UHGV virus genome: UHGV-0213311
Direction: 5' to 3' (one strand)
DNA: 39,041 nt
Source: a virus
A program made the translations under genes and the position numbers. Positions 4,157 through 12,052 of this stretch are shown piece after piece. Under the pieces are notes generated by a model that saw nothing but the letters and a program-made list of their open reading frames with translations, did not search any database and was not told the origin of the DNA. Positions within the stretch are counted from its first letter, which is position 1. Every line of letters starts with the position of its first letter.

Positions 4157-4404
4157 TTACCAACACCTACGGACTCAGAAACGACTGGTACGAACGCCAA
4201 ATGGAACGAGAAGCGTTTGTTAATTCTCAGGAAGAGAAAATATCAGTTGATGAGGTTATGGATAGCCTGCCAGAAGAACTGTTATGTATGGATTTAGCAA
4301 GGAAGTTAAATCCTGTATTTGAAATTAGTCCCCAAGCACTGGATGCGGTTTTAGATGGAATTAGAACAGCGATACAGATTGGGATAGATAAGGAGATATT
4401 GTGA
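4153..4404 (+). CDS. Hypothetical early protein (83 aa), translationally coupled on both sides
   Basis: GTG start overlapping the preceding stop (GTGA), with AGGAGGG upstream. Its stop overlaps the RecT start. Confidence 0.5.
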   Translation: MITNTYGLRNDWYERQMEREAFVNSQEEKISVDEVMDSLPEELLCMDLARKLNPVFEISPQALDAVLDGIRTAIQIGIDKEIL

Positions 4405-5285
4405 GCACGTCAATTATTGAGTTTGTGCAACAACAAGAGTCATTATTTTGCAACGCACTAACAGATCAAACGATCACATGGGCTAAGGAAAGCCAGTTTG
4501 CAATTCAGGCATTCCAACGAAATGACGAGCTAGCAAGAGTGGCTATGGAAAACCCCGCTAGTGCTCAGAATGCCATTATTAACGTGGCGGCTATTGGGAT
4601 TACATTAAATCCAGCAAGTAAGTTGGCGTATTTAGTGCCAAGAAAGGGTTTTGTTTGCCTTGATATCAGCTATATGGGTCTCATGCACCTAGCTCAGGCC
4701 ACTCAAGCTATCGAATGGGGTCAATGCAAGTTAGTCCATGAAAATGACGTTTATGAATCTAATGGTCTAGACACCCCGCCAACCCACAAATATAACGCAT
4801 TCAGTGATAGAGGTAGTGTTATTGGTGGTTATTGCACAGTAAAAACAGCAAGTGGCGACTATCTCACGGAAGAGATGCGATTGGATGAGATAAAGGCTGT
4901 TGAGGCTACGAGCAAGTCAAGAAATGGCCCATGGAAAACATGGTGGGATGAGATGGCTCGTAAAACAATTGTGAAAAGAGCGAGCAAATACTGGCCTCGT
5001 CGTGAAAGGTTAGATCAAGCCATTGATTATGTGAACACCGAGGCAGGCGAAGGCAATGATTTTGATGTGCCAGCAAATAAAGCAAAGGACATAACGCCAG
5101 CAAGCGAGGATCAACTAAAAGCTATCACGGACTTGATGCTTAAAGTTAATGGCGAATGGAGTGACGCATTCTTCACATTCATTAGTAAAAAATTCAACCA
5201 TCAAATATCCCATCCAGAGCAATTAACCGCATTTGAAGCCAATACCATTATCGACATGCTAAGGAAAAAGGCAGAAGGGAAATGA
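4401..5285 (+). CDS. recT: RecT/Bet-family single-strand annealing protein
   Basis: GTG start with AAGGAG RBS. 294 aa. RecT-like core, for example 'GIGITLNPASKLAYLVP' and 'KTWWDEMARKT'. Followed by a coupled exonuclease gene. Confidence 0.75.
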   Translation: MSTSIIEFVQQQESLFCNALTDQTITWAKESQFAIQAFQRNDELARVAMENPASAQNAIINVAAIGITLNPASKLAYLVPRKGFVCLDISYMGLMHLAQATQAIEWGQCKLVHENDVYESNGLDTPPTHKYNAFSDRGSVIGGYCTVKTASGDYLTEEMRLDEIKAVEATSKSRNGPWKTWWDEMARKTIVKRASKYWPRRERLDQAIDYVNTEAGEGNDFDVPANKAKDITPASEDQLKAITDLMLKVNGEWSDAFFTFISKKFNHQISHPEQLTAFEANTIIDMLRKKAEGK

Positions 5286-5980
5286 TTAGTAATGACATTA
5301 TTCTAAGCAAAACAGGCATCGATTTAACCAAAGTAGAGCAAGGAAGCGAAGAATGGATGTCTATCAGGCTCGGTGTAGTAACTGCCTCTGAGGCATGGAA
5401 GGTTATCTCTAAGCCAAAGTCAGGGAAAAAATGGCCAGACACAAAGAAAACATATTTAAACACCCTTATTGGTGAAGTCTGTACAGGAGTTTACAAGGAA
5501 GTATCAGCAAGGACGCTGGAATGGGGTAAAAACTACGAATTAGAAGCAAGGATGACATTCGAGTTTTACACCGGATTAACGGCAAAGGAAGTGCCAATAA
5601 TATTTAAAGATGAGCAACTACGGATAGCTTGCTCACCAGACGGCATTTGCAGTGATGGCTCTGGATTAGAGCTTAAATGCCCTAATAACACGGACGTATT
5701 TATAGACTTAGCATTGAATGGCATCAATGCAATGAAAAAGGAATATGTGGCTCAAGTTCAATATTCCATGTGGGTTACAGGTAAGGATATCTGGCACTTT
5801 GCAAATTTTGACCCACGCATGCCGGCAGGGAAAGAAATCGCATATTTCCCTGTTGAGCGTGACGAAAAAATGATGAAAGAATTTGACGAGTTAGTACCTG
5901 AGTTCATTGAGGTGATGGATCAGGGGTTAAACAAGTTAGGCATTCAATTTGGCAATCAATGGAGTGTATATGGCAATTAA
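5282..5980 (+). CDS. YqaJ / lambda-Exo-like recombination exonuclease
   Basis: ATGA overlap with the recT stop. N-terminal 'GSEEWMSIRLGVVTASE' typical of the YqaJ viral recombinase exonuclease domain. Confidence 0.75.
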   Translation: MISNDIILSKTGIDLTKVEQGSEEWMSIRLGVVTASEAWKVISKPKSGKKWPDTKKTYLNTLIGEVCTGVYKEVSARTLEWGKNYELEARMTFEFYTGLTAKEVPIIFKDEQLRIACSPDGICSDGSGLELKCPNNTDVFIDLALNGINAMKKEYVAQVQYSMWVTGKDIWHFANFDPRMPAGKEIAYFPVERDEKMMKEFDELVPEFIEVMDQGLNKLGIQFGNQWSVYGN

Positions 5981-6425
5981 CACAATAACGGCAAGTGGAA
6001 ACTTAGGTAAAGATTGCGAACAGCGATGGACGCCAAATGGTAAAGCGGTTGCATCTTTTAGTTTACCTGTGAAACAAGGTTACGGAGAACATGAAAAAGT
6101 ATCTTGGGTTATCTGCAAGATGTTTGGCCCTAAAGCTGAAAAGTTACCTCCGCACCTAACCAAAGGAATAAAGGTTACAGTTACTGGTGAGTTCGTCATG
6201 GAAGAATGGACTAGCCAGAACGGTGAGAAAAAATCAGCACCAGTAATTATCGTTGATCAATTAGATTTTGGCGGTAACGGTGGTAATCAGGCAGGAAGCC
6301 AGAAGACACAGCAGAATCAAGGATGGGGTCAACCACAGCAACCGCAAGCACAAAAACAAGCATCGAGTAATCAAACACCACAAAGTGAACCTCCTCAAGA
6401 TTGGGATGATCAAATACCCTTCTAA
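5970..6425 (+). CDS. ssb: Single-stranded DNA-binding protein (track ORF starts at TTG 5949; likely ATG 5970)
   Basis: 'NTITASGNLGKDCEQRWTPNGKAVASFSLPV' matches the SSB OB-fold N-terminus. Gly/Gln-rich linker. Acidic C-terminal tail 'DWDDQIPF', as in the canonical SSB DDDIPF tail. Confidence 0.8.
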   Translation: MAINTITASGNLGKDCEQRWTPNGKAVASFSLPVKQGYGEHEKVSWVICKMFGPKAEKLPPHLTKGIKVTVTGEFVMEEWTSQNGEKKSAPVIIVDQLDFGGNGGNQAGSQKTQQNQGWGQPQQPQAQKQASSNQTPQSEPPQDWDDQIPF

Positions 6426-6455: not shown

Positions 6456-6632
6456 ATGAACTTAGTAATACGCAATTTAAGCACAAATGAAAAGGTGACA
6501 CTAACTATAGCTATTTCAGAAGAAGATTTTAATAAATTATCCGAGAGAGAACAGGACGATTTAATAGAAAACGTAACGGCTGATTATTACGAAAATAAAG
6601 CAGCGGAAGAAATAGAGCGTAAATTTAAATAG
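6456..6632 (+). CDS. Possible small acidic protein (58 aa); not in the ORF track
   Basis: AAGGA 8 nt upstream of the ATG. Fills the gap between ssb and the next gene. Confidence 0.3.
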   Translation: MNLVIRNLSTNEKVTLTIAISEEDFNKLSEREQDDLIENVTADYYENKAAEEIERKFK

Positions 6633-6671
6633 CTCAGGGAATATTTGCAAGGATGCAAACAGGAGATAGAT

Positions 6672-6866
6672 ATGACTATTACATTAACAACGAAGCAAAT
6701 AATGGCTATGGCTGATTTTGTCGGCTTAAAAGTAGAACCTCACGGATTAGATATTAATGATGAGACTGAATACACCATCGAGCCACGTAAAGATAAAGAA
6801 ACCGGTCGTGTGCATGTATTTTACTGTACTGAATATCCAGAAGAAGGCGCCATTCAGCTGGACTAA
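6672..6866 (+). CDS. Hypothetical protein (track ORF 6645..6866; likely start 6672)
   Basis: AGGAG 6 nt upstream of ATG 6672. Confidence 0.45.
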   Translation: MTITLTTKQIMAMADFVGLKVEPHGLDINDETEYTIEPRKDKETGRVHVFYCTEYPEEGAIQLD

Positions 6867-6900: not shown

Positions 6901-7185
6901 ATGGCAGTAGTTCAATTTTATACAACAAGAAGAAAAGACGAAGACCCATCACAAATTACTAATAACCTCAGATATGAAATACCAGATGATCATAATTTCA
7001 GTTCTGATGATGACGACTTTAAATTTTGTATTGAAGCATGTGCAGAATATTATCACGATGACTGTGACGGATGCGAGGATCGATGGCCGTTGTTATTCAT
7101 GTTATGGATTGACGACCAATATCTTGGCACGTTTGAAGTTGAGCGTGAGTTTGACCCAGTGTTTTCAGCAAATAAGGTGGAGTGA
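6901..7185 (+). CDS. Hypothetical highly acidic, Cys-rich protein (94 aa); first gene of the AT-rich island
   Basis: RBS AGAGGA. Asp/Glu-rich run 'SSDDDDFKF...DDCDGCED'. Confidence 0.5.
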   Translation: MAVVQFYTTRRKDEDPSQITNNLRYEIPDDHNFSSDDDDFKFCIEACAEYYHDDCDGCEDRWPLLFMLWIDDQYLGTFEVEREFDPVFSANKVE

Positions 7186-7643
7186 TGGATAAATCAAGAC
7201 AGCAATTTGAAGAATGGCGCAGTAAGAATAAATCATCAACGATAAATCTATTCGATGTATGGCAAGCATCACGCGACTCACTCGTATTAGACCTACCAGA
7301 AAGAGAAAAGAATAAAGGAAATTATGATTTTTTCACTGATGGATATAATAGTGGAATATCAGTATGTGAAATTTCATTATTAGATAACGGAGTGAAAATA
7401 AAAAATGAATATAACAGAGAGCAAATGAAATTAGGCGTTCTATATGCTCGCAATCATTTAATTAGCGCATACAGAGCTAACTTTATAGAGTGTGATGAGA
7501 AGCAGTTCGCTTATATCATGGCCCAATTATCTCACGTTGTAAAGGAATCTATCGATATTGAATTAATGATGGATAGTGTTTTGTCATGCAATGATGAAGC
7601 TGAAAATTGGATTAAAGAAATTCTAATTAAACATTCTAAATAA
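7185..7643 (+). CDS. Hypothetical protein (153 aa) immediately upstream of the D12 methyltransferase
   Basis: RBS AAGGTGGAG. ATG 7185 (the track gives GTG 7182). Very low GC. Confidence 0.5.
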   Translation: MDKSRQQFEEWRSKNKSSTINLFDVWQASRDSLVLDLPEREKNKGNYDFFTDGYNSGISVCEISLLDNGVKIKNEYNREQMKLGVLYARNHLISAYRANFIECDEKQFAYIMAQLSHVVKESIDIELMMDSVLSCNDEAENWIKEILIKHSK

Positions 7644-7775
7644 ATAACCATGCAAATAATCGGATATGTATTACTCATGCTAATACAGGGTTCTGCTGTG
7701 CCTGTGACGGAAGATATATACACGCAATCGGAATGCAATAAACGCGCTGAATAATAAACAATTAACGGAATTCAC

Positions 7776-8732
7776 ATGAGATATATAGGATCTAAGATAA
7801 ACCTAATTGATGAAATAAACGTTTTTATTAATGACAACATCAAAGATAGTAATGAAACATTTCTAGATTTATTTGGTGGAACTAATTGTATTGGTAGGTT
7901 TTTCAAAAGTAAATATACAATTTACTCAAATGATGCCCTTTATTTTAGCTACATTAATTCAAAGGCAATCATAGAGAATGATAACTCTATGAGTTTTAAT
8001 AAATTAATAAATATAGGAATAATGAACCCTATTGATTACTTGCAGTCAAATGCTGATATGTGTATAGAAGATAAAGCAGTTGGATACTATGAGAAAAATT
8101 ATACACCATCAGGTGGTGCAATGTTTTTTACAAAAGAGAATGGAAAGAGGATCGACTATATTAGAGATATGATAGAATATTGGTATAATGAAAATTTATT
8201 GAGCGTATATGAATATTATTATTTAGTTTCATGTTTGATTGAGTCGTTACCTTTCATTAGTAATACTACAGGTACATATAGCGCCTATCTAAAACATTGG
8301 GATAAAAGAGCGTTAAATAAACTAACACTAAAACCACTATCGATAGAAAAAAACAATAGAAGCAATAAGTCATTTAATTTTGATGCCAATAAGTTAGTTA
8401 GAAATATCTATGCTGATATCACTTATATAGACCCTCCATACAACAATAGGCAGTATGCGTCCAACTATCACGTTCTGGAAAATATAGCAAGGAACAATAA
8501 ACCTGAACTTAAAGGGAAATCTAAACTATTTGATTGGTCTAACTTAAAAAGCGATTATTCGGTTAAAAGAAAAGCATTTGAAATAATGACTGATTTAATA
8601 AGCAACGTCCAATCAAAACATATTGTATTGAGTTACAGTAATGACGGAATTATAACAGAAAAGGAATTAATTGATTTACTGAAGAAAAACTCAATTAATG
8701 GGGTAGTTAAATCAAAAAAAAATCCAATATAG
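7776..8732 (+). CDS. D12-class N6-adenine DNA methyltransferase (Dam/DpnM-like)
   Basis: N-terminal 'RYIGSK' (motif I) and 'DPPY' (motif IV), 'FGG' near the N-terminus. 318 aa. GC far below the rest of the window. Confidence 0.75.
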   Translation: MRYIGSKINLIDEINVFINDNIKDSNETFLDLFGGTNCIGRFFKSKYTIYSNDALYFSYINSKAIIENDNSMSFNKLINIGIMNPIDYLQSNADMCIEDKAVGYYEKNYTPSGGAMFFTKENGKRIDYIRDMIEYWYNENLLSVYEYYYLVSCLIESLPFISNTTGTYSAYLKHWDKRALNKLTLKPLSIEKNNRSNKSFNFDANKLVRNIYADITYIDPPYNNRQYASNYHVLENIARNNKPELKGKSKLFDWSNLKSDYSVKRKAFEIMTDLISNVQSKHIVLSYSNDGIITEKELIDLLKKNSINGVVKSKKNPI

Positions 8733-8865
8733 AAAGTACACATCAAAGGTAAAATCTAATGTCACTAATGTGTATGAAATATTATTTTACATAAGAAAAA
8801 AATAAACGTGCTGAATATTTAATGTCAGTGAGGAATGTTGAAATTGTTTGTGGAGAAATATACAG

Positions 8866-9231
8866 ATGAGACAAATTAAAATAAGTTCTGGTTCGTGGCA
8901 AAAAGATTTAGAAATGGTTATCACTGTTATCGATGAAGATAAATTTAAAGCTCAGTGCGAACAAATTAATAAATTCTATTGTGATGCAGAGTATAGAGCT
9001 AAAAAATACGGAAGCCATGAAAAGGCTGGATTTGCAATGTTCTGCGCGGAATGTTTCCAACAGGTGGCATTTAATAACTTCAAGGATGAGGAATGGGTTA
9101 CCGAACAATTCGATTGGTCTAAAGATAAGGGAATTGATGGATATCCTTCGCTAGATGATATGGGAATTCGAATCGATGAAATTGAGTCATGGTTTATTGA
9201 TTACGACGAAATAGAAATCACAGGATGGTAA
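8866..9231 (+). CDS. Hypothetical protein (track ORF from TTG 8848; likely ATG 8866) downstream of the D12 methyltransferase
   Basis: GGAGA 9 nt upstream of ATG 8866. AT-rich. No known motif. Confidence 0.5.
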   Translation: MRQIKISSGSWQKDLEMVITVIDEDKFKAQCEQINKFYCDAEYRAKKYGSHEKAGFAMFCAECFQQVAFNNFKDEEWVTEQFDWSKDKGIDGYPSLDDMGIRIDEIESWFIDYDEIEITGW

Positions 9232-9234
9232 TTA

Positions 9235-9453
9235 ATGAAGCAAGTTCAAGCAATGACAACGTTAGTATTAATTGATGGTATTACTTATCAAATAGCATTA
9301 CCAAAGCAATATGTTTCTCTTCAGGCGAAGCAAGCATTGATGTTTGCTCAAGAGTTCGGCGGTGTAATTATCCCATGTACGTTTACTAACATAAAGCCAA
9401 TGGAAGCCGATGGATTGCCTTTTAATATAAGTGATAGCAAGGATGAGGGCTGA
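9235..9453 (+). CDS. Hypothetical protein (72 aa)
   Basis: RBS AGGATGG upstream. Abuts the preceding gene. Confidence 0.45.
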   Translation: MKQVQAMTTLVLIDGITYQIALPKQYVSLQAKQALMFAQEFGGVIIPCTFTNIKPMEADGLPFNISDSKDEG

Positions 9454-9988
9454 TTACGGAGGTAGCCACACACCAAAGGAATTGCGTGATAGATGGCAAA
9501 CTCCCCTACCTTTATTTACAGCACTGGACGCTGAATTTGGTTTTTATTTAGATGCCGCTGCCGATAAAAATAATGCTCTCTGTTCTCATTACCTAACCGA
9601 AAAAGACGACTCGTTAAATTGCGATTGGGAAAGTTACGGGGCTATTTGGGTGAACCCCCCTTACAGTGAAATTCAACCTTGGATTAATAAAGCCGCCGAG
9701 CAATGTAAAAAGCAATTACAGCCTATCGTGATGTTAATTCCTGCTGATACTTCTGTCGGTTGGTTTAATTCTGCATTAGAAACAGTTGATGAAGTGAGAC
9801 TAATTACAGGAGGAAGAATATCTTTTATTAATGCAGGAACAAACAAACCAGTTAACGGTAATAATAAAGGCTCAATGCTTTTAATATGGAGACCATATAT
9901 CAAACCACGAAAGATAATTAATACTGTCGATAGAGACGAGTTAATTAACATCGGCAATAAAATATTAAATGAATGGAAAATAGCATAG
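9431..9988 (+). CDS. Phage Dam-family N6-adenine DNA methyltransferase (small T1/lambdoid-type)
   Basis: 'WQTPLPLF...DAAA' N-terminal motif plus 'NPPYS' catalytic motif. 185 aa. Usual position between the recombination module and xis. The true start may be M5 at 9443. Confidence 0.7.
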   Translation: MIARMRADYGGSHTPKELRDRWQTPLPLFTALDAEFGFYLDAAADKNNALCSHYLTEKDDSLNCDWESYGAIWVNPPYSEIQPWINKAAEQCKKQLQPIVMLIPADTSVGWFNSALETVDEVRLITGGRISFINAGTNKPVNGNNKGSMLLIWRPYIKPRKIINTVDRDELINIGNKILNEWKIA

Positions 9989-9995
9989 GTGAATT

Positions 9996-10190
9996 ATGGA
10001 CATTATCGACTCAGCAAATGAAACAAACGAACTATATATTCAAGTGTCATTATCAAATCGCAAGGCGGCAATTAAATCATATAGCGGAATGTGTATCTGG
10101 TGTCACGAAGAACCAGTTGCACCTAATAGCGCATACTGCAGTAAAGATTGCGGCGATGACCATGAGCAATATAAACGGAAAAATGGATAG
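9996..10190 (+). CDS. Small Zn-ribbon protein (64 aa)
   Basis: CIWC...CSKDC four-Cys arrangement. GGTGA RBS. Overlaps the alternative-frame ORF 9973..10212, which is considered less likely. Confidence 0.4.
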   Translation: MDIIDSANETNELYIQVSLSNRKAAIKSYSGMCIWCHEEPVAPNSAYCSKDCGDDHEQYKRKNG

Positions 10191-10199
10191 GAGAATGAA

Positions 10200-10568
10200 A
10201 TGGAAGGGATGACCATGCCAAGAAAAGAAGCTGCCGCATATATTGGTATATCAGAAGACACACTCTCTCGTTGGTGCAAGCTAGGATTGATTGCATACAC
10301 AAGAAAGGACCCATCAAAGAAAAACTCGCCATATCTATTTACGAGAGCTGCGTGTATTGCGGCAGCTAATAAATCAATTCACAATATACCAGTGAACGCT
10401 GGTGAGACACGAGAGGGAAAATCATGTCTTTATTCAGAAGAGGTAAAATATGGTACGGAAACTACACGACGCCAAGCGGTAAAAGAATCAAGGAGTCTCT
10501 TGGCACAGAGGACAAGAAGCTCGCGCAGGAGTTGCACGACACAAGAAAGGTCGAGTTATGGCGCATAG
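10200..10568 (+). CDS. xis: Excisionase-like HTH protein (Xis/AlpA-type)
   Basis: AGGAG RBS. N-terminal '[25 protein letters not shown]' HTH typical of phage excisionases. Immediately upstream of int. The 3' end overlaps int by about 145 nt, so the functional protein may be shorter. Confidence 0.55.
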
Positions 10569-11581
10569 AACGTCTTGGTGACTTTCCTGATGTTACTTTC
10601 GAAGAGGCTATAGTTCGATGGATTGAAGAGAAAGCAGACAAAAAATCACTGGATGACGATAAAGGTCGGCTTTCTTTTTGGTTAGATCACTTTGAAGGTT
10701 ACCGACTTAAGGATATTACAGAAGCAAAAATATATTCCGTTATCAATAAGATGGTAAACAGAAAAGCAAGGGAGAGATGGGAAAAACAAGCGGAATCAGC
10801 CAAAAGAAAGGGAAAGGAAATCCCTGCATTTACTGATGTCCCTGTCAGTAACGCAACCAAAGCAAAGCATCTCGCCATCATGAAATCTCTGTTAAGAGCT
10901 GCTGAACGTGACTGGAAATGGTTAGAAAAATCTCCCGTTATCAAAGTTCCAACAATCAGAGAAAAGCGGGTTCGGTGGTTAGAACATCATGAAGCTAAAA
11001 GACTGATTCAAGAATGCCCTGAACCACTGAAATCCGTAGTTACATTTGCATTGGCCACTGGATTAAGGCGATCCAATATTATCAATTTAGAGTGGAGTCA
11101 AATTGATATGCAAAGGAAAGTTGCATGGATAAACCCAGAGGATAGCAAATCAGGCCAAGCAATTGGTGTTGCTTTAAATGACACTGCTTGTCAGGTTCTT
11201 AAGGAACAAATAGGAAACCATCACAAGTGGGTATTTGTTCATACTGAATCAAAGAAGAGACCAGACGGAACATTAACGCCAAGCGTTAGAAAAATGCGAG
11301 TTGATTCTAACACAGCATGGAGAGCAGCGTTAAAAAGAGCAGGAATAGAAAACTTCCGCTTTCATGATCTGCGCCACACATGGGCGAGCTGGTTAATTCA
11401 GTCCGGAGTTCCGCTTTCAGTATTACAAGAAATGGGCGGATGGGAATCAGTTGATATGGTTAGAAGGTATGCTCACCTAGCGCCTAATCATTTAACTGAA
11501 CATGCAAAGCAAATAGACAGTATTTTTGGCACTTGTGTCCCAAATACGTCCCACTTAAGAAAAGTAGAGAATTTAAAATGA
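10424..11581 (+). CDS. int: Tyrosine integrase (lambda Int family; tRNA-Arg-targeting type)
   Basis: N-terminus '[14 protein letters not shown]'. Box I 'ATGLRRSN'. Box II '[15 protein letters not shown]'. Catalytic Tyr in 'VRRYAHL'. Adjacent to the tRNA-derived att core. Confidence 0.9.
11536..11554 (+). repeat. Putative Int arm-type binding site (copy 1 of TGTCCCAAAT-N-CGTCCCA)
   Basis: 19-bp element TGTCCCAAATACGTCCCAC. It recurs at 11756..11774 and partially (ACGTCCCACC) at 11701..11710, flanking the att core. Confidence 0.5.
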
Positions 11582-11660: not shown

Positions 11661-11755
11661 GCTTTAATATCAACTAAATACAGTCTCACCAAGCGTTCAC
11701 ACGTCCCACCTTACCTAAAGTTACTTGAAGTTGACTTATGCTACTTCATGTTGCT

Positions 11756-11774
11756 TGTCCCAAATTCGTCCCAT
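11756..11774 (+). repeat. Putative Int arm-type binding site (copy 2)
   Basis: TGTCCCAAATTCGTCCCAT. 18/19 identity with 11536..11554, on the other side of the att core. Confidence 0.5.
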
Positions 11775-11821
11775 CAATTCCCCCACCCTGCTATACTCTC
11801 CAAAAACTAACCGGATCTAAT

Positions 11822-12052
11822 ATGAACCTCGCAAACCTAACTCAAGAAGAAAAAGACAAGATTAATATCGATTTGGCCGCAAGTGGTGTCGCATATAAAG
11901 AACGCCTCAATATGCCAGTTGTTGCCTCAGAAGTTGAACGACAACAACCAGCACATTTGAGAACGTACTTTAATGAACGATTAGCGTTTTATCGTGAGAG
12001 AAGTAAGAAACTTCCAGATGCGAATTCTGTGCAGTATTTGAAGTCGGAGTAA
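11822..12052 (+). CDS. Hypothetical small protein convergent with the tailspike (track ORF 11738..12052; ATG 11822 preferred)
   Basis: The ORF ends exactly where the tailspike gene ends on the opposite strand. The upstream part of the track ORF lies over arm-site repeats. Confidence 0.35.

Follow-up and report, generated by a model that had tools for sequence, protein, structure and literature searches.

Organization of the Methyltransferase Locus

The 39,041-nucleotide stretch of viral DNA analyzed here (UHGV virus genome UHGV-0213311; hereafter, the window) carries a D12-class N6-adenine DNA methyltransferase gene among small phage genes. The four open reading frames described in an earlier note on this DNA, which was made from the sequence alone, were found at the positions reported there and are listed in Table 1 together with the features identified in the present analysis.

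Table 1. Genes and sequence features around the methyltransferase gene, in window coordinates.
Feature	Position	Strand	Description
94-aa ORF	6901..7185		94 aa
153-aa ORF	7182..7643		153 aa
Small conserved phage ORF, 5′ part	7650..7754	+	MQIIGYVLLMLIQGSAVPVTEDIYTQSECNKRAE (translation); 34 codons plus stop; truncated by the insertion
17-bp direct repeat, left copy	7737..7753	+	AATAAACGCGCTGAATA; brackets the insert
Low-GC cassette	7754..8800	+	1,047 bp; 22-bp leader plus methyltransferase gene; limits from alignment to methylase-free phages
D12-class N6-adenine DNA methyltransferase ORF	7776..8732	+	318 aa as read in the window; premature end KSKKNPI, then stop
A9 homopolymer	8714..8722	+	Longest homopolymer of the window; frameshift site; A8 in the intact allele
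+1-frame continuation	8722..8805	+	IQYRKYTSKVKSNVTNVYEILFYIRKK, the conserved C-terminal 27 residues, then stop codon TAA (8803-8805) of the intact 342-aa enzyme
Terminal A7 run	8796..8802	+	Overlaps the last Lys codons, directly before the stop; second slippage-prone tract
17-bp direct repeat, right copy	8801..8817	+	AATAAACGTGCTGAATA; includes the stop codon of the intact methyltransferase
Small ORF, displaced 3′ remnant	8801..8869	+	NKRAEYLMSVRNVEIVCGEIYR, then stop; from the sequence and comparison with loci L001 and L002
DUF2528 ORF	8866..9231		121 aa

All four genes had been assigned to one AT-rich island of approximately 6.9 to 9.3 kb. The sharp drop in GC content is genuine and cannot be put down to chance. 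The composition calculated by windows was not uniform, and the minimum of 27.7%, against a mean of 40.8% (z = −4.0), coincided with the 1,047-bp insert; the three 500-bp windows spanning 7501-9000 had GC contents of 0.300, 0.298, and 0.278 (mean of the window, 0.408). The lowest of all 1,047-bp sliding windows started at position 7760 with a GC content of 0.276, and the lowest one not overlapping the insert reached 0.351. The extent of the island was nevertheless overstated. Gene by gene, the 94-aa gene (0.379) and the DUF2528 gene (0.355) fell inside the range of 0.31-0.43 observed for the other early genes, the 153-aa gene had a value of 0.320, and the sole outlier was the insert itself (0.277). 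Likewise, comparison with methylase-free phages reduced the acquired segment from four genes to a single one, at 7754-8800.

The limits of the insert were evident from the alignment to related phages devoid of the methylase, in which position 7753 is joined directly to 8801. In phage MZ614453, the segment 7650-7753 runs directly into 8801-8856, the two sharing the 17-bp repeat, so that a single repeat copy is present at the empty site, which was seen in both MZ614453 and Pm34. The uninterrupted small ORF of the insert-free phages comprises about 51 codons (seen in loci L002 and L003). A pattern search found two copies of the 17-bp repeat in the window versus none expected from 100 shuffles; the copies differ at one position, which splits the match into two 8-mers, and the repeat is kept at both cassette ends in most other loci. 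The ATG of the methyltransferase lies only 22 bp past the upstream stop, and on the other side the TGA of the small-ORF remnant overlaps the ATG of the DUF2528 gene (ATGA). The segment thus behaves as an accessory gene: phages that are otherwise collinear differ in whether they carry it, its limits are discrete, and its GC content is atypical. Promoter-like sites were no commoner in the window than in shuffled sequence, terminator-like sites were in slight excess (5 versus 2.0 ± 1.5 in shuffles), and none of either kind flanked the cassette. In contrast to a classical moron, which has its own promoter and terminator, the cassette of this Proteus phage appears to have neither and looks embedded in an operon. 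Scans of the window for tRNA genes and Rfam families gave no matches.

Characterization of the Methyltransferase and Its Relatives

The 318-aa product matched PF02086 over residues 3-278 with 129.6 bits, above the Pfam gathering threshold of 22 (E = 2.2e-37), and the sequence repaired at the frameshift gave the same result. This match, together with RYIGSK at residues 2-7 and the catalytic motif IV DPPY at 219-222, bears out the D12 classification already proposed for this protein. The AdoMet-binding motif DLFGGTN is located at residues 31-37. Residues D31, F33, G35, D219, P221, and Y222 are the same in all 92 homologues compared, and at least 90% of these also share P220. The repaired methylase also matched the PADLOC MTase_II profile PDLC03287 (E = 3e-135; profile positions 1-339 of 646). 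An AF2 model was obtained with a pLDDT of 93, and its top PDB structural matches in Foldseek were EcoDam, T4 Dam, and DpnM (TM-scores of 0.33-0.49, which denote similarity at the family level). Like these three enzymes, the phage protein combines the xxIGSK and FxGxG AdoMet motifs with a large inserted target-recognition region, DPPY, and a C-terminal beta-strand pair. Unlike the solved Dam enzymes, to which it is 10-14% identical, it has a longer target-recognition region (342 aa versus about 260-280 aa), and the copy in the window has its last 27 residues out of frame. Since a phmmer search of the PDB sequences gave no match and the Foldseek similarity is at the family level only, no target sequence can be assigned from the solved enzymes; the specificity is probably not GATC.

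No close donor of the gene was found, the best non-Proteus relative being 61% identical. The closest of these relatives that bear a taxon name (54-61% identity) belong to the Firmicutes, in agreement with the horizontal acquisition from a low-GC source that the earlier note had suggested, and the two staphylococcal homologue genes measured had a GC content of 24-25%. In Mammaliicoccus sciuri, the locus is composed of three methylases, M1 (342 aa), M2 (291 aa), and M3 (240 aa), and a 471-aa endonuclease, while that of Staphylococcus hominis encodes a fused 597-aa methylase and a 467-aa endonuclease, the latter 61% identical to the M. sciuri endonuclease. Both endonucleases match PADLOC REase_II (PDLC03445; E = 2e-59 to 3e-64), and a search for solved-structure relatives of this partner endonuclease found none. 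The phage methylase is 54-55% identical over its full length to M1 and to the N-terminal half of the fused enzyme, and the phage gene derives from the first methylase, or from the N-terminal half of the fused methylase, of such multi-methylase Type II (IIA/IIS-like) systems. In contrast to the staphylococcal systems, the phage gene stands alone as an insert within an operon of the phage, and the window lacks the 467-471-aa endonuclease, the third methylase (N6_N4), and the second D12 methylase or half. The two-domain FokI methylase is of the same multi-methylase Type II kind. The methylases of these systems act on an asymmetric site, each modifying one of its strands (PMC4081073). Given an origin from one half of an asymmetric-site system, the predicted target of the phage enzyme is probably asymmetric and may be methylated on one strand only.

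Frameshift at the A9 Run and Distribution of the Alleles

Truncation of the methyltransferase by a frameshift had been missed in the earlier reading of this DNA. The one extra A of the A9 run shifts the frame at codon 316, and the product stops three codons later; the length of the tract within the ORF therefore sets the reading frame, A8 giving 342 aa and A9 giving 318 aa. The M. sciuri homologue matched positions 8716-8799 in the second frame by tblastn with 68% identity, and within the tail E334 is common to all 92 homologues, while each of Y318, R319, and Y321 is kept by at least 90% of them. In the AF2 model, the out-of-frame tail corresponds to the end of strand 312-317 and the whole of strand 333-341. 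A complete Rossmann-type core with the C-terminal strand pair is absent in the frame of the window and present in the A8 allele (protein P0123), and the catalytic motifs FGG and DPPY are intact in the 318-aa product. Because the strand end, the entire last strand, and residues Y318, R319, Y321, and E334 are lost, the A9 copy is, judging from the model, most likely inactive or nearly so, and some residual activity of the 318-aa product may persist. A pN/pS of about 0.25-0.35 among the intact alleles speaks, together with the conserved residues and the strands of the model, for the importance of the tail. The terminal run is also variable, being A6 in loci L023 and L024, where the methylase reads on into the tail of the small ORF to give a fusion of 364 aa.

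In Proteus mirabilis, most copies carry the A8 tract and with it the 342-aa reading frame. In the related loci, the tract was A8 in 20 and A9 in 4 (the window, L004, L005, and L006), and the 342-aa form predominated among the 18 members of the 90% cluster. The exact 318-aa product was present in 3 contigs and its exact A8 counterpart P0123 (342 aa) in 16, and about 50 contigs with A8 stand against two independent A9 sources; these allele counts rest on exact-protein look-ups, since IMG/VR, the GTDB species representatives, and the JGI metagenomes yielded neither relatives of the D12 gene nor a match to the pattern flanking the tract. The two A9 sources have different upstream modules and share an identical 3.3-kb segment, and the SNP haplotypes of the cassette are identical between the A9 loci and some A8 loci. 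Haplotype comparison could not demonstrate a recurrent origin of A9, and the identical 3.3-kb haplotype around both copies makes a single origin possible. The retention of A9 in two prophage mosaics indicates that it is not strongly counter-selected. That the extra A is an artefact of sequencing or assembly, the gene being intact in the real phage, is very improbable. Homopolymers are the classic site of indel errors and the window sequence stems from a run-level assembly, but the same 318-aa allele occurs in the assembly of an independent P. mirabilis isolate (GCA_036905015.1, also SRR28034977), in a prophage with a different upstream region, and it has been deposited under several NCBI accessions.

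Neighboring Genes and the Restriction-Modification Reading

The identical 342-aa methylase was present in at least 10 mosaic prophage contexts with differing upstream and downstream neighbors, and only the segment 7650-8856, corresponding to the small ORF and the methylase, was common to them. This unit of small ORF plus methylase circulates among mosaic P. mirabilis prophages. Proteus phage Pm34, which lacks the methylase, carries the 94-aa gene and the N-terminal half of the 153-aa gene. The 153-aa ORF itself joins in frame two small genes of 75 and 81 aa, each of which stands alone in sibling prophages. The orphan status considered in the earlier note is thus supported by the variable neighbors of an identical protein and by the absence of the partner endonuclease and of further methylases from the window.

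The same note had also raised a compact restriction-modification or other defense module in which one of the neighbors (94 aa, 153 aa, or DUF2528) acts as an unrecognized nuclease. Only the physical adjacency and the lack of annotation of these genes speak for such a module, and we consider it very unlikely. The neighbors occur without the methylase, the methylase occurs without them, and no similarity to nucleases was found, so that a restriction-modification or defense function of the group is not supported. The three neighbors matched no PADLOC defense model and no PDB sequence, and the model of DUF2528, the sole neighbor modeled (pLDDT 92.6), matched no solved fold in Foldseek (best E = 0.73) and thus no nuclease fold. 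The doubt that the earlier note itself expressed over FIECDEK in the 153-aa protein was justified. As for the true partner endonucleases of the Firmicute homologues, tblastn of the 467-aa and 471-aa proteins against the window found nothing (best E = 2.4), nor did it find a homologue of the second or third methylase (M2, best E = 1.8; M3, best E = 8.5). There is consequently neither an adjoining cognate endonuclease nor a constant partner gene, as in a Type II system, nor a second methylase or D12 domain, as in a two-methylase module. Moreover, the methylase is frameshifted and yet the phage persists, a condition that would be lethal with an active cognate endonuclease. The 94-aa, 153-aa, and DUF2528 neighbors are ordinary phage early genes.

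The Proposed Accessory Methylase Cassette and the Possible Role of the Homopolymer

The best explanation of the locus, which we hold with a probability of about 80%, is an accessory cassette of one gene (a "moron") that forms the low-GC patch and encodes an orphan D12-class (alpha-group) N6-adenine methyltransferase, the copy in the window being frameshifted. The cassette is inserted into the small conserved ORF in the early-left operon of a temperate, P22-like phage of Proteus. Predicted to have no promoter of its own, the methylase would be transcribed as part of the early operon once the phage infects or is induced, and the intact A8 enzyme (342 aa) is predicted to carry out S-adenosylmethionine-dependent methylation of adenine at a specific site. 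Orphan methylases of phages generally have a protective, anti-restriction role; by analogy, methylation would pre-protect the phage DNA from the restriction enzymes of other Proteus strains. Slippage during replication could return the A9 allele to A8 and so give back some full-length enzyme, and the loss of one A during transcription of the run could likewise yield some.

The small ORF has a further occupant in sibling phages such as vB_BPM-V3, where it holds a C5 methylase gene with a poly-G run of G6, G7, G8, or G9, of which only G7 is in frame. The homopolymers might therefore constitute a genuine phase-variation switch operating by high-frequency slipped-strand mispairing between A8 and A9, and across G6 to G9 in the C5 cassette, with the window caught in the OFF state. 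We regard this as unlikely, albeit less so than the other alternatives. It would account for a break located exactly in the longest homopolymer of the window, for the occurrence of both A8 and A9 in natural isolates, for the variation of the second run at the 3′ end (A7 or A6), and for the four poly-G lengths of the sibling cassette, where chance is unlikely to have placed a run of G7-G9 in a gene with a GC content near 34%. Phasevarions, which comprise Type III mod and other methylase genes that contain simple-sequence repeats, resemble this arrangement in that a homopolymer inside the ORF differs in length from isolate to isolate and controls production of the complete protein. They are, in contrast, chromosomal Type I/III systems of host-adapted pathogens, while the present gene is a phage-borne orphan with two A-tract lengths. 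That the D12 tract shows only two lengths weighs against a switch, as does the presence of A9 in two independent sources, both on one 3.3-kb haplotype, against some 50 A8 contigs; an identical segment of this kind fits a single mutation inherited by descent. A8 runs are also to be expected in a Lys-rich gene with 72% A+T, and the M. sciuri homologue has A8 runs elsewhere. Poly-A tracts of 8-9 are, in addition, weakly mutable in mismatch-repair-proficient enterobacteria.

A programmed recoding site at A9, using transcriptional slippage or a +1 ribosomal shift to make both the 318-aa and the 342-aa proteins in functional form, appears still less probable. Runs of nine A are prone to transcriptional slippage and are established slippage sites in bacteria, such as the A9 of Thermus dnaX (PMC1088944), and a poly-A tract (A11) rescues the frameshifted tssM in Citrobacter rodentium (PMC4256274). 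As in these two genes, the phage gene has a sense-strand A9 near its 3′ end with the conserved C-terminus in another frame, and the A9 allele has been kept in two prophage backgrounds. In dnaX and tssM, however, the run and the frame arrangement are conserved, whereas in the phage gene A8 is the norm and A9 the minority. Since A8 alleles, which specify the complete protein without any shift of frame, make up the great majority of copies, recoding does not represent the conserved condition; a run at the corresponding position is missing from the Firmicute homologues, and a truncated protein devoid of the core strands has no evident use.

Implications and Related Phage Methylases

The accessory-cassette reading makes the locus a routine case of a phage gaining an orphan methylase, and its value is mainly corrective: the "island" consists of one gene, that gene is frameshifted, and there is no hidden nuclease. 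For annotation, the deposited 318-aa P. mirabilis "DNA adenine methylase" should be read as a truncated allele of a 342-aa enzyme. The finding is also relevant to phage-therapy work on Proteus, because the methylase content of a phage affects its host range. Of wider interest is the presence of two unrelated methylase classes in the same small ORF, each with a homopolymer polymorphism that decides whether the enzyme is produced. Our literature search for Proteus phage methylases and for phage-borne phase-variable orphan methylases found no directly relevant paper. As a speculation to which we give little weight, Proteus lambdoid/P22-like phages might keep a slot in this small early ORF for exchanging orphan methylase cassettes (D12 m6A and C5 m5C) toggled by homopolymer slippage. 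If so, a phage or lysogen population could hedge between protection from classical restriction in the ON state and escape from methylation-dependent Type IV restriction or from a cost of methylation to the host in the OFF state. If switching were rapid and reversible, phase-variable methylation would extend from the chromosomal systems of host-adapted pathogens to temperate enterobacterial phages, and A8 and A9 lysogens would offer a simple test system.

Known phage orphan methyltransferases that serve as anti-restriction accessory genes, such as T4/P1 Dam and the PF05869/TIGR01712 enzymes, share with the D12 gene its occurrence as a single gene with no endonuclease, its position in an early operon, its atypical GC content, and its movement between mosaic phages. 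Methylases of PF05869, in contrast, belong to another family, whereas the D12 gene corresponds to one half of an asymmetric-site system and is frameshifted in the window. A second methyltransferase, of the phage Dam family PF05869, which the earlier note did not report, is encoded at 9431-9988, 700 bp downstream of the D12 gene and in the same operon.

Genome context and early operon

The window holds the complete or almost complete genome of a temperate, P22-like Proteus phage. Long stretches match the Proteus phages vB_BPM-V3 and Brookers at 93–94% identity, the latter being described as P22-like (PMC9022592), and the same prophage is found integrated in P. mirabilis chromosomes beside folD and cysS (L013). 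The cassette lies in the early-left operon, encoded on the plus strand. An intact phage N6-adenine methylase (PF05869, E = 1.5e-74; TIGR01712, E = 1.7e-59) is situated 700 bp downstream of the D12 gene in the same operon and is replaced by an MT-A70 methylase in other mosaics. The excisionase and integrase ORFs overlap by 145 bases in different frames.

Features of the early-left operon and adjacent region
Feature	Coordinates	Strand	Remarks
RecT	4401-5285	+	
YqaJ exonuclease	5282-5980	+	
SSB	5949-6425	+	
Small ORFs	6456-6866	+	
94-aa ORF	6901-7185	+	
153-aa ORF	7182-7643	+	
34-codon ORF	7650-7754	+	5′ piece of the small ORF split by the cassette
D12 methyltransferase	7776-8732	+	
DUF2528	8866-9231	+	
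72-aa ORF	9235-9453	+	
Second methyltransferase	9431-9988	+	Phage Dam type
DksA-like zinc-finger protein	9996-10190	+	
Excisionase	10200-10568	+	phrog_2907, E = 1.5e-31
Integrase	10424-11581	+	
DNA polymerase III theta subunit homologue	11738-12052	+	PF06440, E = 5.9e-35; between integrase and tailspike genes

Boundaries and base composition of the D12 cassette

The cassette was delimited by aligning the window to three related phages without the D12 gene. Positions 7650–7753 and 8801–8856 are adjacent in MZ614453, and both alignments share a 17-base overlap; the 17-mer AATAAACG(C/T)GCTGAATA is located at 7737–7753, with a second copy at 8801–8817 (0 copies expected by chance). The inserted segment, 7754–8800, comprises 1,047 bp, namely the methyltransferase gene preceded by a 22-bp leader, and the stop codon of the intact gene sits within the right 17-bp repeat. 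A small conserved ORF of about 51 codons, uninterrupted in Pm34 and MZ614453, is split by the insertion into a 5′ piece of 34 codons and a 3′ remnant whose TGA overlaps the DUF2528 start codon. No promoter or terminator signals above shuffled expectation were found at the cassette, so the D12 gene is probably transcribed within the operon. MZ614453 is labelled ‘Salmonella phage MS2 LVA’ and UNVERIFIED; across 9.5 kb of structural genes, its identity to the Proteus phage is ~94%, it has a Proteus-type early region in common with the window, and its Salmonella host label looks doubtful.

The GC content was 0.300, 0.298, and 0.278 in the three 500-bp windows over 7501–9000, compared with 0.408 for the whole window. 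By segment, it was 0.379 in the 94-aa gene, 0.320 in the 153-aa gene, 0.277 in 7754–8800, and 0.355 in the DUF2528 gene. The lowest value of all 1,047-bp sliding windows (0.276) started at 7760; the cassette had z = −4.0, and the lowest non-overlapping window of this length reached 0.351. The earlier note had described a four-gene AT-rich island and suggested a windowed GC plot. The ORFs and motifs that it listed are present and both the methylase and the dip are real, but the extent was set too wide: the minimum coincides with 7754–8800, so that the supposed island amounts in essence to a single gene rather than four.

Relationship of the methylase to its neighbours

P0123, the exact 342-aa counterpart of the D12 protein, was encoded in 16 contigs, and the ten contexts retrieved all differed on both sides. 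Their recombination module was RecT/YqaJ, ERF, or DUF3799; the immediate upstream gene (80–152 aa) belonged to different families; downstream lay either DUF2528 or, ahead of NinX, a 57-aa ORF; as second methylase there was PF05869 Dam or MT-A70; and integrases were of at least three types. Only 7650/7655–8856 of the window was common to all, and on these contexts the D12 methylase is not linked to its neighbours. Pm34, a methylase-free phage, has the 94-aa gene together with the part of the 153-aa gene that encodes the N-terminal half. The 153-aa ORF itself joins two small genes in frame: in four sibling loci (L014, L017, L019, L022), 7 bp (AATGAAT) are tandemly duplicated at ~7403, which yields separate 75-aa and 81-aa products, and the C-terminal module of the ORF, with the ‘FIECDEK’ motif, is a stand-alone gene in another prophage (L015). 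The DUF2528 family (120 aa) is widespread in phages and prophages of Morganellaceae, Vibrio, and Aeromonas; its confident AF2 model (pLDDT 92.6) had no match among solved folds in Foldseek (best E 0.73). PADLOC defence models and a PDB sequence search gave no match for any cassette neighbour. A restriction-modification or other defence module, one of the possibilities raised in the earlier note, is thus not supported, given that the neighbours vary among prophages and lack such matches, and that the partner endonuclease of the Firmicute homologues has no counterpart in the window. The acidic 94-aa protein has four cysteines with CxxxC...CxxC spacing and resembles PHD and CXXC zinc fingers only at insignificant levels (E = 0.2–1.4), and its gene is conserved in Pm34 at 87% nucleotide identity.

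Origin from a Type II system

The Proteus copies of the D12 gene fall into a single cluster at 90% identity (18 sequences), in which every named member is from P. mirabilis. The next relatives of the protein are only 54–61% identical, the named ones belonging to Firmicutes (Vagococcus, Staphylococcus, Lactococcus, and Mammaliicoccus). The homologue heads a set of three methylases in M. sciuri (D12, 342 aa; D12, 291 aa; N6_N4, 240 aa), which are opposed by a 471-aa protein on the other strand, whereas S. hominis has the first two methylases joined in one 597-aa protein that adjoins a 467-aa protein. The 467-aa and 471-aa proteins share 61% identity, and both match PADLOC REase_II (E = 2e-59 and 3e-64). 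The phage protein covers positions 1–339 of the 646-position PADLOC methylase profile (E = 3e-135), and the second M. sciuri methylase covers positions 363–642. The phage gene is thus the ‘first half’ of a multi-methylase Type II system, left as an orphan; in systems of this type, each of the methylases acts on a single strand of an asymmetric site (PMC4081073). Whereas the M. sciuri and S. hominis systems include a second methylase, or half, and an endonuclease, the window has no counterpart of either, and tblastn against the window detected neither the endonuclease nor the second or third methylase (M2, M3). The other suggestion of the earlier note, an orphan methylase of low-GC origin, proved correct: the staphylococcal homologue genes (M. 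sciuri and S. hominis) have 24–25% GC, near the 27.7% of the cassette, and the partner genes were not found. The segment is a phage-borne orphan methyltransferase cassette of a kind already known, present here as a frameshifted allele. In S. hominis CP020618 (L008, 1–6794), the fused homologue and endonuclease lie beside ccr-type serine recombinases, SAUGI, DUF960, and DUF1643, and therefore in an SCC-like mobile element.

Frameshift in the D12 gene

The methyltransferase ORF exists as first listed, but the frameshift in it had been overlooked. The ORF stops at 8732 after ...VVKSKKNPI, and the +1 frame goes on with IQYRKYTSKVKSNVTNVYEILFYIRKK up to a TAA at 8803–8805; deleting one A from the A9 run (8714–8722) gives a 342-aa protein identical to P0123. 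The M. sciuri homologue likewise aligned in two frames by tblastn (residues 1–316 at 7776–8726 and 313–340 at 8716–8799). Among 24 loci, the window included, the tract was A8 in 20 and A9 in four (the window, L004, L005, and L006). L004 comes from the window's own source run, and L005 and L006 are identical to each other, which leaves two independent sources for A9. In the second, a P. mirabilis isolate assembly, the prophage differs from the window in its recombination module and is base-for-base identical to it from 7300 to 10600. The presence of the allele in both sources argues against a sequencing artefact, and this identity means that A9 may stem from a single mutation.

In the lost tail, E334 is invariant among 92 homologues, and Y318, R319, and Y321 are conserved in at least 90%. 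The intact protein was modelled with AF2 (pLDDT 93, pTM 0.91), the nearest solved folds being EcoDam, T4 Dam, and DpnM; in this model, truncation deletes the end of strand 312–317 and all of strand 333–341. From conservation and model, we infer that the window's copy is inactive or strongly impaired; pN/pS of ~0.25–0.35 among intact alleles fits a gene whose function is normally maintained. Replication slippage from A9 to A8 could restore the full-length enzyme, as might slippage during transcription, for which runs of nine A's are a known site (PMC1088944); in Citrobacter, a frameshifted tssM gene owes its rescue to a poly-A tract (PMC4256274).

Homopolymer variation in the two methylase cassettes

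In vB_BPM-V3 (L001, PQ539422; 1545–2510), the small ORF that the D12 cassette splits is interrupted at a different codon by a C5 cytosine methyltransferase (PF00145, E = 6.8e-27); L032–L040 also carry a C5 cassette in this ORF. The vB_BPM-V3 gene is broken at a G9 run, and its annotation in the deposited genome is a hypothetical protein of 242 aa. In Proteus prophages and metagenomes, G6, G8, and G9 give products of 241, 247, and 242 aa, and G7, the sole in-frame length, gives the intact 320-aa protein. Because the run is long, has four natural lengths, and lies in a gene of ~34% GC, it resembles a simple-sequence contingency locus. For the D12 gene, true phase variation through its A tract is unlikely, as only two lengths were seen, A9 may have a single origin, and a gene rich in A+T and in Lys can be expected to contain runs of A; the case is much weaker than for the C5 poly-G. 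Of wider interest is that two methylase classes occupy one slot, each with a homopolymer on/off polymorphism. The terminal A7 run of the D12 gene (8796–8802) is A6 in two P. mirabilis prophages (L023 and L024), where the stop is lost and the methylase reads on into the last 22 residues of the small ORF; the resulting protein has 364 aa, and its new stop overlaps the MT-A70 start.
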